Shown one piece after another: positions 3,897-14,562 of a stretch of DNA of 18,425 nucleotides. The position numbers were made by a program, and so were the translations under genes. A model generated the notes under the pieces. That model made no database searches and was not told where the DNA came from. It saw only the letters and a list, made by a program, of their open reading frames with translations. The stretch is taken from IMG/VR virus record IMGVR_UViG_3300029911_000190; one strand, 5' to 3'. This stretch comes from a virus. Numbering within the stretch: the stretch's first letter is position 1; each line of letters begins with the position of its first letter.

Positions 3897-4121
3897 ATGT
3901 TTGACCGCAAGCTGATTGAGAAGTTGGAGGCTAACACCCCCAATTGTCCCGGATGTAATGGCATTGCATACTTCGTTTCCTGCTCCGGTTACACACTTTT
4001 GAAGTGTGAAAACTGTGGGCAGAGATTTGCCGCCCCACGTTCTCTCACCAATACCATAGTTGCCGCCTACAACCTATCAAAAAAATCTACTGGAAAACGT
4101 CTCCGTCCGTGTATACTGTAA
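3897..4121 (+). CDS. zinc-ribbon mini-protein (CPGC...CENC)
   Basis: 74-aa ORF with an RBS gagg 6 nt upstream. Two CxxC pairs spaced ~20 aa apart. Confidence 0.6.
   Translation: MFDRKLIEKLEANTPNCPGCNGIAYFVSCSGYTLLKCENCGQRFAAPRSLTNTIVAAYNLSKKSTGKRLRPCIL
4088..4117 (+). promoter_or_regulatory. copy of the recurring promoter module (degenerate -35 TACTGG, spacer aaaac...gtg, -10 TATACT). Predicted leaderless start at ATG 4124
   Basis: TATACT 4112-4117. The 18-bp spacer begins AAAAC as in the other copies, with an A-tract upstream. The ATG sits 6 nt after the -10. Confidence 0.4.
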
Positions 4122-4123
4122 AC

Positions 4124-4447
4124 ATGAGTACGAAGAAGCAGAAGCAACAGGAAAGTGAAGAGAAGGACATTCTGTACGTCCTCAAGCGACCGGACGGAAG
4201 CGTCAGGGCTGAACTCATCATGAACCCTTCTCTGGCTAAAAGGATTAACGCTGGCCGGAGGAAAAAGGGGTTCCTTGATGGGGATTGGGAGCCACAGCAA
4301 GTGAGCCAATATGGCTTGTGGCATCTCGACTTCAATACGCTGCCCGATTGGATGCTGGCTTGCCTGAAGAAGGCCCAGCAGGACGCTCAGACCGAGGCTA
4401 CACAAGCCCCGCAGCTTCGTCTGGAGGACGAACCATGGAGAAAGTAA
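4124..4447 (+). CDS. hypothetical protein (108 aa), likely a leaderless start
   Basis: The ORF track starts it at GTG 4109, inside the promoter and inside the previous gene. ATG 4124 follows that gene's TAA directly. No SD, but TATACT-N6-ATG fits a leaderless arrangement. Confidence 0.55.
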   Translation: MSTKKQKQQESEEKDILYVLKRPDGSVRAELIMNPSLAKRINAGRRKKGFLDGDWEPQQVSQYGLWHLDFNTLPDWMLACLKKAQQDAQTEATQAPQLRLEDEPWRK

Positions 4448-4594
4448 TTGTCACCTACGTCGGAGCCCTCATCCACTTCATCGGAAGGAACTTCCTCTGA
4501 TGGTTCAAGTAGTGATTCTGGCGGCGACAGCGGCGGGGATGGTGGAGGTAGCGACTAACGTGGACTTAAACAGGTAAAATTTTTTTCCCAAAAC

Positions 4595-4624
4595 TAGCCA
4601 AAACCCCCGCCATCTCGGTATACT
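4595..4624 (+). promoter_or_regulatory. promoter module copy: TAGCCA-N18-TATACT with an upstream AAAATTTTTTT tract
   Basis: TAGCCA 4595-4600, spacer aaacccccgccatctcgg (18), TATACT 4619-4624. The ATG lies 18 nt downstream, behind a gggagag RBS. Confidence 0.6.
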
Positions 4625-4641
4625 AGTGGTGGGAGAGAAGA

Positions 4642-5223
4642 ATGACCACGACGATTGAAAAGCGCATTGAAGGTCTGGAGAACTTCAAGGAAATCGTAGG
4701 GAAGTTCATTACCCGCCTCGGCGACCCCTCGAAATATGAGTTTCGGGGTGAAGTCATCGACCTCGGCGAGTATGGCAAGGGCAAATGTACATGTGACCAC
4801 CCGGTTCGCTACATGCTCTTGATTTGGGGTCCGAACGGTGAGGTTGCCCCGGTTGGCGTGGAGTGCATCAAGCACTTCGCTGCCTACAACGAAACCCTGT
4901 TCAACAAGCTCGAAGGTGCCCGTCTTGGCCTTATGGAGGCTCTCGCCGCTGATGAGCGCGAGAAGACTCAGGTTCGTCAACAGGCGGAGCGGAGTAAGCT
5001 GCAACCCATCTACGAGCTTGCTCGTCGTCGCTTCCTCGCAGTCTGCAAGATGCATCAGGACAACATCAGCACGTACCTCCCTCATGCGATGTGGACGCTC
5101 AAAGCTAACCTGTTGAAGAAGGCTGAGTACAAGACAACCAATGGTTACCTTAAGTTTTATACCCGCATGACTCTCGAAATCGAGAAGACACTCGGCATGT
5201 ACGAGAGAGGAGAGTTACGCTAA
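4642..5223 (+). CDS. hypothetical protein (193 aa; contains CTCDHP)
   Basis: Clean ORF with an RBS gggagagaag; stop overlaps next start (TAATG). Confidence 0.75.
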   Translation: MTTTIEKRIEGLENFKEIVGKFITRLGDPSKYEFRGEVIDLGEYGKGKCTCDHPVRYMLLIWGPNGEVAPVGVECIKHFAAYNETLFNKLEGARLGLMEALAADEREKTQVRQQAERSKLQPIYELARRRFLAVCKMHQDNISTYLPHAMWTLKANLLKKAEYKTTNGYLKFYTRMTLEIEKTLGMYERGELR

Positions 5224-5543
5224 TGCTAGTCAACTTCAATGAACTACAGCGAGAAGCTAAGGTACCGGGCTCTCGCTTCAGGAAGGAAACTGTGATTCCT
5301 AAGCGGACATGGGGCGGAATCAAGTTCACCTTCCGTGAAGGTGTATGGTACTCGGAGAGTGGGATTGAACTCCGGTGTGCGTCCGCTCTACGTTCTCCCT
5401 TGTCCGACCATTGGAGCCTCCGGTATCAGGGTCGCAACCTGAACAGCGGGATGTCCGCCGAAGAGGCTGTAAAAATCTTCTTAAAAACTCACCAAAACCC
5501 CAGCGGCTTCGGTACGGCAAGCCCTACTGGGACTAAGGACTAA
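5223..5543 (+). CDS. hypothetical protein (106 aa)
   Basis: TAATG coupling to the upstream gene. Contains a degenerate internal copy of the promoter module (5488-5517). Confidence 0.6.
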   Translation: MLVNFNELQREAKVPGSRFRKETVIPKRTWGGIKFTFREGVWYSESGIELRCASALRSPLSDHWSLRYQGRNLNSGMSAEEAVKIFLKTHQNPSGFGTASPTGTKD

Positions 5544-5545
5544 CA

Positions 5546-5716
5546 ATGCCAAGCACCCTTGCAACTGAAACCATTTTGGAAGTCAAGAAACTCGCAAGAG
5601 AGTACACCGAGAAGACGTTCATCGCTCCCGGTGTGAGTGAATACCTGACAATTGAAAACGCCATGCTGGGTGCCGCTATCCATGTGCTGAAGGTGCTGGA
5701 AAGGTTGAAGCTGTAG
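5546..5716 (+). CDS. hypothetical small protein (56 aa; MPSTLATETILEVKKLAREYTEKTFIAPGVSEYLTIENAMLGAAIHVLKVLERLKL)
   Basis: Absent from the ORF track because it is under 60 aa. RBS aagga 6 nt upstream. Fills the gap between flanking genes exactly. Confidence 0.5.
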   Translation: MPSTLATETILEVKKLAREYTEKTFIAPGVSEYLTIENAMLGAAIHVLKVLERLKL

Positions 5717-5727
5717 TATAATGAGGT

Positions 5728-13165: not shown

Positions 13166-13450
13166 ATGTCTCATTTTGCTGTAACCGTAATCGGCGAAGA
13201 ACCGGAAAAACAGCTTGCTCCCTACCATGAATTTGAATGTACCGGCGTTGACAACGAGTATGTTCAAAGTATAGATGAGGAAGCACGTGAAACGTGGAAG
13301 AGGGATGACGATGACTCCAAGAAACCCTTTTTAGAATTCCTTCAAGATTACTTAAAGAGCGGTCGGATAGGGCTTCATGGAACCCCCGGACTTCAAAGGT
13401 TAGACCCCAACTATGAACGGCCAAAGATTACGACCTGTTTGCCGATGTAG
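13166..13450 (+). CDS. hypothetical acidic protein (94 aa); ends at an in-frame TAG
   Basis: RBS aaaggacaatat. Same reading frame as the two following open segments. Confidence 0.55.
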   Translation: MSHFAVTVIGEEPEKQLAPYHEFECTGVDNEYVQSIDEEARETWKRDDDDSKKPFLEFLQDYLKSGRIGLHGTPGLQRLDPNYERPKITTCLPM

Positions 13451-13501
13451 TCAAAGATACGCCTGAAGCGTAAGATTCAGCGATTCTTCGCAGGGGAGGG
13501 G

Positions 13502-13942
13502 GTGAAGCCATTGACAAACCAATTCAGCCAATCACGATACTCGAAGGTGGATGGTCCCAAAATGATCTTATACCTGCTATTAGGTACAAGGTTACTTGCC
13601 CCGACGGATGGTACGAGTCAGCAAAAGACAACCTCTGTCACCTCTCAGGAGCCGAGAACGGCGTTGATTGACGGCGCTCCGTAGGCACCGTATCGGAGGC
13701 CGCAACCAGCACGGTGCGACATCACCTGCACCCGTTCGGAATACATTGAAAGGGCACGGCGGAAAGCAATTACTACCTTTGCACTGGTAAAAGATGGCAA
13801 GTGGTATCAGAGGGGACGTATGGGTTGGTTTGCTTGTGTTTCAGATGAAAAGGATGAAGCCGTATGGCACCGCGAGTTCTCAGACCTGTTCGATGGCCTC
13901 CCAGATAACACGCTCATTACCATCGTTGATTGCCACATCTAA
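13502..13942 (+). pseudogene. protein-like coding signal in the frame of gene 13166, interrupted only by TAG codons (13448-13450, 13682-13684). Possible readthrough/recoded or decayed gene
   Basis: Putative GTG start at 13502 behind the leader TTCGCAGGGGAGGGGG (cf. 13982-13997). The segment 13685-13942 (…FALVKDGKWYQRGRMGWFACVSDEKDEAVWHREFSDLFDGLPDNTLITIVDCHI*) is protein-like, and its only in-frame start is an ATG giving 40 aa. The +1 frame at 13474-13671 is also protein-like and contains no Met. Confidence 0.3.
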
Positions 13943-13949
13943 AAAGAAT

Positions 13950-13979
13950 TTGCAAAAACCAACTAAGACCGTCTATACT
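13950..13979 (+). promoter_or_regulatory. promoter module copy TTGCAA-N18-TATACT
   Basis: Spacer aaaccaactaagaccgtc (18). The leader cctcgcagggggaagga precedes ATG 13999. Confidence 0.55.
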
Positions 13980-13998
13980 TCCTCGCAGGGGGAAGGAC

Positions 13999-14256
13999 AT
14001 GCCTCGTAGCAACAAAGCATTTGGGTCATACCAAAGTGGCAGCGGGTGTTCTATCGAACCAGCGATACCGGCTCGGTGGGATGTTTTCCTTAAGGAACTC
14101 AACGTAACAGAAATGGAAGCTCTGACAATACTCAGGAGCCGGTCGGAATTGACACCCCGTATCCGGTCATGGGTAATGACAAACCACAGGTCAGCCTTTG
14201 TTCCTGAAGATTTCCTCATGACCTTGGGCATTCAAATGGAACTGTACGAAAACTAA
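13999..14256 (+). CDS. hypothetical protein (85 aa)
   Basis: ATG directly behind the ggaagga RBS, downstream of promoter copy P6. Confidence 0.6.
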   Translation: MPRSNKAFGSYQSGSGCSIEPAIPARWDVFLKELNVTEMEALTILRSRSELTPRIRSWVMTNHRSAFVPEDFLMTLGIQMELYEN

Positions 14257-14264
14257 CGAGTGAT

Positions 14265-14528
14265 GTGATGAGCGACCAACTTCTAACCCGAGACGAGTTC
14301 CGCGAGGGCGTATTCGCTAGAGACAGGCACACGTGTGTGAATTGTCGCAAGCCGGGAGTTGACGCTCATCACATCATGGAACGCAGACTGTTTCCTGATG
14401 GAGGGTATTACCTTTGGGAGCAGGAGAAGTACCCCATCACGGTAGACCCTCTCAATGGAGCCGGGTGCGATTACAACGCCATCATCCAAGCGGAGGAGTC
14501 CAAGCGGACGTGTGGGGATTCTAAATAA
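14265..14528 (+). CDS. truncated HNH-like protein (87 aa). N-terminal paralog of the HNH::RNA-ligase gene, lacking the second half of the HNH motif
   Basis: MMSDQLLTRDEFREGVFARDRHTCVNCRKPGVDAHHIMERRLFPDGGYY aligns with MEEPLLTRDEFRGLVLARDHNTCAHCGSSGVRLDVHHIMERRLFEDGGYR of gene 15358. The N...LCxxCH half is absent. DNA-level divergence is high, so the duplication is old. Confidence 0.6.
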   Translation: MMSDQLLTRDEFREGVFARDRHTCVNCRKPGVDAHHIMERRLFPDGGYYLWEQEKYPITVDPLNGAGCDYNAIIQAEESKRTCGDSK

Positions 14529-14532
14529 ATAC

Positions 14533-14562
14533 TAGCCAAAAGTAGGGCACTCCGGGTATACT
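14533..14562 (+). promoter_or_regulatory. promoter module copy TAGCCA-N18-TATACT, followed by an ~80-nt SD-less leader with nested inverted repeats
   Basis: Spacer aaagtagggcactccggg (18). Leader contains TGGGTA(n11)TACCCA and ttgtttcc/gaaaacaa repeats. No SD before ATG 14645. Confidence 0.6.

Follow-up and report, generated by a model that had tools for sequence, protein, structure and literature searches.

We have analyzed an 18,425-nucleotide stretch of viral DNA, IMG/VR record IMGVR_UViG_3300029911_000190 (called here the window; all coordinates are those of the whole stretch), along which a bipartite promoter-like module of roughly 50 bases is repeated. We conclude from its sequence that this module probably acts as a strong sigma70-type early promoter, often yielding leaderless mRNAs. 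The module is real, uniform and widespread, and a phage early promoter with frequent leaderless starts is a kind of signal already known; what is interesting is the unusual box found in the -35 position, and its reader. The window was read together with its flanks (about 4 kb before it and about 10 kb after it), which amounts to about 32 kb of a phage genome of roughly 100-116 kb, and was compared with other contigs and loci designated by L-numbers, among them a syntenic relative, L034.

The initial annotation had listed seven copies of the motif, with hexamers starting at 4088, 4595, 5488, 6002, 7067, 13950 and 14533, and had named a motif scan as a check. For the scan of the window we used a position weight matrix (PWM) built solely from copies outside it, and took as chance ceiling the best score of 200 shuffles (10.2). 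Five members of the family were found, all on the + strand and each scoring above 200 of 200 shuffles. All the listed copies are found at the given coordinates, on the + strand. Of the seven, however, only four are intact, a fifth is a fossil, and the other two are looser sites that resemble promoters. These last two, with TATACT at 4112 and 13974, score under the shuffle ceiling and are not statistical members of the family.

4576..4624, + strand: intact module, intergenic, TATACT at 4619, PWM 57.9, syntenic copy in L034
5984..6031, + strand: intact module, intergenic, TATACT at 6026, PWM 41.7, syntenic copy in L034
7047..7096, + strand: intact module with a variant box, intergenic, TATACT at 7091, PWM 38.2, syntenic copy in L034
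14516..14562, + strand: intact module with a weak A/T tract, intergenic, TATACT at 14557, PWM 20.1 to 33
5470..5518, + strand: decayed (fossil) module, in a gene, -10 position at 5513, PWM 17.0, no counterpart in L034
4080..4117, + strand: divergent copy, PWM below 10 and under the chance ceiling, syntenic site in L034 with PWM 22
13941..13979, + strand: generic sigma70-like promoter, not a member, intergenic, 9/12 consensus matches, PWM below 5

Intergenic gaps amount to 9.7% of the window, and the four intact modules and the 13941 site all fall within them. Word counts were also revealing. The string GGTATACT occurs four times in the window for 0.16 expected (none of 200 shuffles reached four), ACTAGCCAAA has three exact occurrences, each 14 nt ahead of a GGTATACT, and TATACT appears eight times when 2.9 were expected, six of these on the + strand.

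The highest-scoring copy, at 4576, is composed of an A/T tract (4576-4586), CCC, AAAAC (4590-4594), the box TAGCCA (4595-4600), an 18-bp spacer that opens with AAAC and ends with TCGG, and TATACT (4619-4624). Its predicted start, the G at 4631, is the first base of a Shine-Dalgarno (SD)-like GGGAGAG ahead of the ATG at 4642 of a 193-aa gene (4642-5223), and modules of this type followed by GGGAGAGAAGAATGAC were found in L015, L017, L020, L032, L034 and L058. In the 5984 module the tract is AAATAATTTT, the box TAGCCA (6002-6007), the 18-bp spacer AACC...TCGG and the -10 element TATACT (6026-6031); a start predicted near 6038 would give a 32-nt leader with AAGGA before the ATG at 6070 (180-aa gene with a match to phrog_2072). 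The 7047 module carries the variant box TAACTA (7067-7072), again 18 bp before TATACT (7091-7096), and the ATG at 7103 is found 6 nt past the latter (hereafter, offset 6), so that the 129-aa protein encoded at 7103-7492 is on a predicted leaderless mRNA. At 14516 we find TAGCCA (14533-14538), a spacer of 18 bp (AAAG...CGGG) and TATACT (14557-14562), with an ATG at offset 6 (14569) that starts a 10-codon mini open reading frame (ORF), MLIVSFGWVV (14569-14601). This mini-ORF is followed by a hairpin and then by an HNH-like endonuclease gene (14645-15376) that matches endonuclease PHROGs. The 75-nt leader of the endonuclease gene (to 14644) has a fold of -20.4 kcal/mol (z = -1.96), and the mini-ORF plus hairpin (14569-14644) may be regulatory.

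The remaining sites depart from this pattern to different degrees. The 5470 copy retains the A/T tract, AAAAC, TCACCA and AAAC...TCGG, with TACGGC at the -10 position, and the region 5470-5543 encodes the last 24 or so residues of an ORF (5223-5543); it is a dead promoter absorbed into a coding region. The divergent copy at 4080 consists of AAAAAAATC, TACTGG, an 18-bp spacer opening with AAAAC, and a TG ahead of TATACT (4112-4117); it overlaps the final codons of the gene 3897-4121, and the ATG at 4124, at offset 6, begins a 107-aa gene (4124-4447). The 13941 site combines TTGCAA (13950-13955), 18 bp, TATACT (13974-13979), an SD-like GGGGGAAGGA and an ATG at 13999. As the initial annotation had indicated, the gap between hexamers is exactly 18 bp at all seven sites and TATACT is perfect at six, the 5488 copy being the degenerate one. 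The spacer signature that it proposed, AAAC...(T/C)CGG, is literal at 4595, 5488 and 7067 and nearly so at 6002 and 14533, but its end fails at 4088 (...CGTG) and at 13950 (...CGTC). The upstream A/T tract is real at 4595, 6002 and 7067, weakly present at 14533, and conserved throughout the family.

This family extends far beyond the window. Exact-pattern scans turned up more than 70 contigs from peat metagenomes or viruses, 13 kb to 332 kb in length, that together hold about 100 distinct copies. The exact-pattern scan of IMG/VR gave 24 viral loci, and a stricter 20-base pattern gave 52 metagenome loci (about 2 expected by chance), nearly all from peatland series. When the window was aligned to those contigs, only the module, about 60 bp, was recovered, with little other DNA in common. 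The short consensus is AAAAtAATTTcCc-AAAAAC-TAnC(C/T)A-AAAC-N-CcGG-TATACT, and pooling the copies gives AAAAtAATTTcCc-AAAAAC-TAGCCA-AAAC(c/t)..GG......C(c)GG-TATACT-gtaggt. Conserved stretches of about 16 and 8 bp flank a free spacer core of 10 to 12 bp. Copies found independently of the pattern have the boxes TATCCA, TAACTA, TAGCTA or TAACCA, all fitting TAnC(C/T)A. All 72 ascertained copies have the 18-bp gap, as do 14 of the 16 non-ascertained ones. The -10 element, a 5/6 match to TATAAT, was seen to vary only to TATCAT and TATTAT, and T-12, A-11 and T-7 are kept in at least 97% of the copies. The 15-mer box by itself, when searched in IMG/VR, matched mostly by chance, with TATACT at 18 bp in one of 84 new sites, and added no variation of the -10. 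Two conserved tracts are found upstream, AAAAtAATTT (-56 to -46) and AAAAA (-42 to -38), in a register about 2 bp off the E. coli UP consensus. A blastn search of 50,697 phage records with the module consensus gave no meaningful match, and our literature searches on the motif and on promoters of Acidobacteria found nothing relevant.

The recurrence of the module, its geometry and orientation, its position with respect to genes and tRNAs, and its conservation in a syntenic relative are all direct observations. Five further strong copies were found in the same phage outside the window, one upstream of Ku and four in the 1.2 kb upstream of a gene coding for a PARP-domain protein, the last of them directly before it. 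In every locus except one, the copies are co-oriented with each other and with the genes. The genes downstream of family members are of early type and include rIIA, Ku, a helicase, PARP, a tRNA nucleotidyltransferase and those of the ligase region. In an 89-kb viral contig (L007, 1571-6373, - strand) an array of nine tRNAs starts 19 nt after the module. The first tRNA of this array has the anticodon CTA, amber-reading and suppressor-like, and was called by ARAGORN as tRNA-Pyl.

The bases that follow TATACT point to where transcription would start. An ATG at exactly offset 6 was found in 31-32 of about 98 distinct copies, while any other offset had about 1.5, and 28 of these ATGs open ORFs of at least 40 codons. 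Offset 5 is occupied by T in 72% of the copies and offset 6 by a purine in 90% (C in 1%), regardless of the sequence that follows. This is the usual pyrimidine/purine signature of a putative start site, at the usual distance from the -10. Besides, 22 more copies have an SD-like motif (GGAG or GGGAGAG) whose first base falls at offsets 5 to 8, where the transcript is predicted to begin. The initial annotation had proposed leaderless translation for the genes at 4124 and 7103, and the family-wide pattern (ATG at offset 6 in 32 of 98, T at -1, purine at +1) is consistent with such a design for both. An independent gene caller picks the same two ATGs, neither of them nor the ATG at 14569, a further case that had been overlooked, is preceded by an SD, and the predicted leaderless geometry fits all three. 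The proposal of promoters for early-type genes with a fixed 18-bp geometry and an UP-like tract also found support.

The comparison with L034 adds to this picture. Over the region 761-11293 the proteins of both phages are 55-87% identical, and L034 retains modules at all four corresponding places, even at the weak 4112 site, where it has TATCCA-18-TATACT-GTAAGC-ATG (the site with PWM 22). The copy syntenic to 7091 also has an ATG at offset 6, with a different gene behind it. The conservation of the 4112 and 7091 sites thus supports the leaderless reading of 4124 and 7103. Gene content just downstream of the 6026 and 7091 modules differs between the two phages. In addition, their alignment is interrupted by a 2-kb insertion, after which DNA homology resumes exactly at 4574, the upstream edge of the 4619 module. 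It had also been suggested that the modules dissect the gene array into short transcription units, and this was not supported. We found no terminator-like hairpin upstream of the copies in the window, and across the family the fold of the 62 nt upstream was no better than background (p = 0.16), with a strong GC hairpin in about 10% of the copies. Because terminators are lacking, the modules look like internal promoters that add starts to the read-through transcription of a co-directional array, rather than insulated units.

The architecture suggests that the multisubunit RNA polymerase of bacteria would recognise the module as a strong bipartite promoter, which would drive early (pre-replicative) genes in a large clade of peatland phages, all uncultivated. 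From it we infer every protein contact, start site, temporal class and sigma identity in the following model. From about -57 to -38, the phased A/T tracts would act in the manner of an UP element, offering the alpha C-terminal domains a docking site or a bend, and the box C-TAnC(C/T)A-AAAC (-37 to -27) would take the -35 position. Past the rigid 18-bp gap, sigma regions 3.0 and 2 would read G-14, G-13 and TATACT, and transcription would begin at the purine 7 nt after TATACT. In about one third of the copies the start purine would be the A of the ATG, producing a leaderless mRNA with initiation without SD, and in about another quarter the transcript would open with GGAG or GGGAGAG, 8 to 12 nt before the ATG. 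The reader would be the unmodified host holoenzyme with its primary sigma, as at the "uber" early promoters of T4, and the uniformity of the box would reflect selection for maximal competitiveness. We favor this direct reading by the host holoenzyme over a phage-supplied reader and consider its chances about even.

As a control we looked at two cultured phages of Acidobacteriaceae, Tunturi_3 (PP885686, 97.6 kb, 51% GC) and the jumbo phage Tunturi_5 (PP885688), whose genomes were described without mention of promoters (PMC11924767). The minus-strand early region of Tunturi_3 (L094 and L095) has at least 12 cTTGACA-17/18-TAnnnT promoters upstream of early genes. Several of them have the 18-bp gap, GG before the -10 or an ATG at offset 6, the distance from the -10 being exactly 6 nt in two cases (genes ending at 43518 and 93131). 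In Tunturi_5 (L089, 30001-80000) we found two families of promoter-like repeats, eight of aaagTCATCTttgg-(18-bp gap)-TAGGTTga, that is TCATCT-18-TAGGTT, four with an ATG 6 nt downstream, and nine of TC....-18-(GG)TATTAG/C. The module itself is absent from both, with PWM scores below 8 in Tunturi_3 and neither TATACT nor TATAAT in the 50 kb read of Tunturi_5. The repeats of both phages resemble the module in the 18-bp (or 17/18-bp) gap, the A/T-rich upstream tracts, the G or GG before the -10 and the several ATGs at offset 6, and differ from it in the hexamers, which are TTGACA/TAnnnT in Tunturi_3, and TCATCT/TAGGTT and TC..../TATTAG in Tunturi_5. From these sequences the 18-bp gap and the leaderless design look like general traits in this host family, and the upstream hexamer like a phage-specific one. 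Deriving a consensus of Acidobacteriaceae promoters from 200 kb of the Granulicella tundricola megaplasmid was abandoned, as leaderless geometry appeared in 5 of 123 annotated starts, too few to be of use.

The initial annotation had invoked a specific sigma or an appropriation factor, and its main argument, the fixed spacing, is removed by these controls. Since Tunturi_3 shows both with canonical promoters, no special factor is needed for the 18-bp spacing or the leaderless geometry. The -10 element, the G at -14/-13, the distance to the start site and the UP-like phased A tracts are all ordinary features of the sigma70 family. The box TAGCCA matches TTGACA at 4/6 positions, with a spacing of 18 bp inside the 16-19 range, but the family consensus lacks the G at position 3 and has a C at position 4. 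What survives of that proposal is the upstream box, TAnC(C/T)AAAAC, non-TTGACA and far more uniform than in promoters of host type. Several points do weigh against the host holoenzyme as sole reader. The box is not a canonical -35, its third position (G in TTGACA) being variable and the fourth an invariant C, and the -10, like the box, is far more uniform than in promoters of host type. Canonical TTGACA-type promoters are nearly absent from the 32 kb read, the exception being found at 691-719, and Tunturi_3 indicates, judging by its promoter sequences, that at least one primary sigma of Acidobacteriaceae probably reads TTGACA, which the module avoids. The family statistics are partly inflated by ascertainment, loci having been fetched with exact patterns, and the non-ascertained subsets are safer. 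Finally, the exact 20-base pattern had three matches among 185,579 species-representative genomes, about the chance level. Two of these look like chance (L025, inside a gene end, and L027, without UP tract), and the third, in a contig of a Terracidiphilus metagenome-assembled genome, is a member of the cassette family described below and may be a mobile element.

A possible, though less probable, explanation is that the promoter is the same and a phage-supplied factor reads the box, either a phage sigma or an activator acting with a remodelled sigma region 4 in the manner of MotA/AsiA. Host sigma would still read GG-TATACT and the module would mark a delayed-early or middle class. A near-invariant box of 10-11 bp, centred near -32 and different from TTGACA, would fit such a factor, as would the use of canonical TTGACA by a cultured Acidobacteriaceae phage, Tunturi_3. 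The two private boxes of Tunturi_5, with the same 18-bp geometry, suggest phage-specific boxes on a common -10 scaffold, and the lone canonical promoter at 691-719 could serve the immediate-early genes. There is a precedent in the middle promoters of T4, where sigma appropriation by MotA and AsiA pairs a phage-specific box at -30, replacing the -35, with a stringent sigma70 -10 (PMC2988021). However, the box of the module is 14 to 16 bp from the -10, instead of the 12 +/- 1 bp of the MotA box, has another sequence, and comes with a conserved UP-like tract, typical of early and not of MotA-type promoters. Neither did we find sigma-, MotA- or AsiA-like domains among the window proteins (Pfam, PHROG) or the 25 commonest families in 150 neighbouring proteins, this covering about 32 kb of the genome, and homing endonucleases were the only gene families co-occurring with the module. 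The presence of the module on contigs of 13 kb to 332 kb and on a resolvase cassette beside defence genes is explained more easily by one host polymerase. We regard as doubtful the broader proposal that the box is the site of an undescribed phage-borne factor (a new sigma or MotA/AsiA-like) common to a wide clade of peatland phages, probably of Acidobacteriota, with genomes from about 45 to over 300 kb. Alternatively, the box might reveal a non-canonical -35 specificity in the primary sigma of an uncultivated host lineage. The peat source, a best ligase match to a Tunturiibacter phage and one module contig binned as Terracidiphilus weakly suggest Acidobacteriota as hosts. That contig shares gene families with the 332-kb contig classed as viral and so may not be chromosomal, and hints sought by comparing TnpB or the 108-aa cassette protein with plasmids were uninformative.

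That the module might not be a promoter at all, and instead be a recombinase res/att site, a replication or packaging iteron or an operator, is very improbable. It does precede a cassette ended by a serine recombinase at twenty loci, but the fixed 6-nt distance to start codons, the T/purine signature, the SD starting at the predicted +1, the co-orientation with genes and the position upstream of tRNAs are all against it. Boxes without dyad symmetry, and multiple direct copies per genome, which would be deleterious for a recombinase site, speak in the same direction. As for a promoter of a single-subunit (T7-like) RNA polymerase, the module has two blocks with a free core and not a continuous sequence of about 20 bp, and the 851-aa ORF of the window is vault/MVP-like and not an RNA polymerase.

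The cassette just mentioned is conserved at twenty metagenome or genome loci, where the module is followed by the gene of a 108-aa protein, in most cases by one for a dual-specificity phosphatase, and lastly by that of a serine recombinase (about 214 aa). The first of these genes starts 5 nt after TATACT.

L026 4273-5042 (- strand), L035, L040, L043, L044, L045, L047, L051-L054: cassette loci
L057, L059, L060, L063, L066, L067, L073, L078, L083: cassette loci, continued

A different defence system was found beside each cassette examined: type I restriction-modification (R-M), DndB-like/GIY-YIG, MvaI/BcnI nuclease, AbiC, MmeI-type R-M, and ResIII plus methylase. The cassette looks like a mobile element or an anchor of defence islands, and this context fits a polymerase-level signal common to different mobile elements. 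If the box were read by a phage factor, the cassette would be wired to switch on at infection by such a phage. In L040, L043 (- strand), L045, L059 and L083 a CTG located 4 nt after TATACT aligns with the GTG or ATG start of the 108-aa gene. The sequence of this subgroup is TATACT-tcct-CTG-TGT-ACT-AAA, with no in-frame ATG, GTG or TTG before the conserved N-terminal codons, and the CTG might serve as a leaderless start or belong to some feature not yet recognised. We also considered that the sequence conserved behind the module at about 20 loci was a non-coding RNA, and rejected this, as it has no Rfam or tRNA match and aligns as a protein-coding gene.

With regard to the genomic setting, the + strand of the window holds every credible gene except one, and the proteins that could be named (Pfam/PHROG) have functions of phage early type.

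761-3316, + strand: vault/MVP-shoulder-like protein of 851 aa (Pfam shoulder E = 4e-23, repeat E = 4e-10)

This protein is 74% identical to its counterpart in L034, and a hairpin with a 12-bp stem is found at 3341-3370, downstream of its gene. Other named genes code for an ATP-dependent DNA ligase, a histidine phosphatase, an HNH-RNA ligase fusion and the HNH-like endonuclease. Exact-protein look-ups place the window proteins on bog-metagenome contigs of 86-116 kb, in which rIIB and Ku are found just upstream, and a ClpB-like ATPase, TnpB and the PARP-domain protein downstream. There was no megablast match to deposited phages, and at the protein level the ligase alone had similarity (27-33%), to Tunturi_5 and a Micrococcus phage. 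Four contigs of 86-116 kb (L028, L029, L030 and L086) are independent assemblies of the window phage whose different start points, in or near the window, suggest circular permutation or terminal redundancy of the genome. Beyond 16577 the strains differ in gene presence or absence. In the early region of L086 we find a TnpB (Cas12f-like) gene at 10412-11569 and the gene of the 501-aa PARP-domain protein at 12860-14365. The latter is predicted to be leaderless behind a module, and its product may be an Alt/Mod-like ADP-ribosyltransferase. The sole canonical-looking promoter of the region (691-719, TTGATA-17-TACTAT with TG) lies upstream of the 851-aa gene and is divergent from the only minus-strand ORF of the window (173-667). 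Downstream of it there is a perfect palindrome, GTACAC-AAAC-GTGTAC (726-741), and the whole stretch 691-741 may be an operator-controlled immediate-early promoter.

The module provides a high-information promoter model for uncultivated peat phages, with a PWM that leaves a margin of more than 30 bits between true copies and shuffles, and makes early regions, transcription starts and leaderless genes annotatable directly from metagenomes. The family supplies about 40 natural examples of predicted leaderless genes behind one defined promoter, a clean test bed for leaderless initiation outside model organisms, and the contrast with the TTGACA of Tunturi_3 makes the question of host sigma versus phage factor experimentally simple. 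That the module is also found on a recombinase cassette, next to defence genes of several kinds, hints at a regulatory wiring common to phages and defence islands.

Bacterial leaderless genes carry TANNNT about 12 nt upstream of the start and were found in all three Acidobacteria genomes tested (Zheng et al., 2011; PMC3160421). In the same way, exactly 12 nt separate the first T of TATACT from the A of the ATG at 4124, 7103 and 14569, and in about one third of the family. In those genes, however, diverse host promoters with a weak -35 are involved, whereas here we find one uniform full-length cassette. Another parallel is provided by the promoter-early stem-loop (PeSL) mobile cassettes, for which a shuffling role has been proposed in T4-type phages (PMC2839356, PMC4122927). 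Like them, the module is a repeated early-promoter sequence bounding variable small ORFs, with at least one indel breakpoint at its edge, but neither the window copies nor about 90% of those in the family have the other half of a PeSL, the terminator stem-loop. It is unlikely, in our view, that the modules also work as short homology patches shuffling early genes between phages, an added role and not an alternative to promoter function that, if true, would help to explain their uniformity and spread. In its favor are the alignment of the module alone between otherwise unrelated contigs, the homology resuming at 4574, the gene replacements after the 6026 and 7091 modules and the richness of these regions in homing endonucleases; against it, a single pair of relatives was compared, stem-loops are not enriched in the family, and the two conserved stretches, with a free spacer between them, are short for homologous recombination.

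The closest analogue of the module, judging by its architecture, appears to be found in the early promoters of T4, described as "uber" UP/-35/TGn/-10 promoters with extra consensus that are read by the unmodified E. coli sigma70 holoenzyme (Hinton, 2010; PMC2988021). The differences affect the box, TAnC(C/T)AAAAC in place of a close match to TTGACA, the rigid 18-bp spacer, the GG instead of TGn and the predicted leaderless design of about one third of the copies. Otherwise both are found in many copies upstream of small early genes, with an UP-like A/T tract, an element at the -35 position, contacts just upstream of the -10 (predicted in the case of the module), a near-consensus -10 and conserved positions beyond the host consensus. 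Even the gene content is reminiscent, since the window phage shares with T4 a PARP-domain ADP-ribosyltransferase-like protein and rIIA/rIIB.

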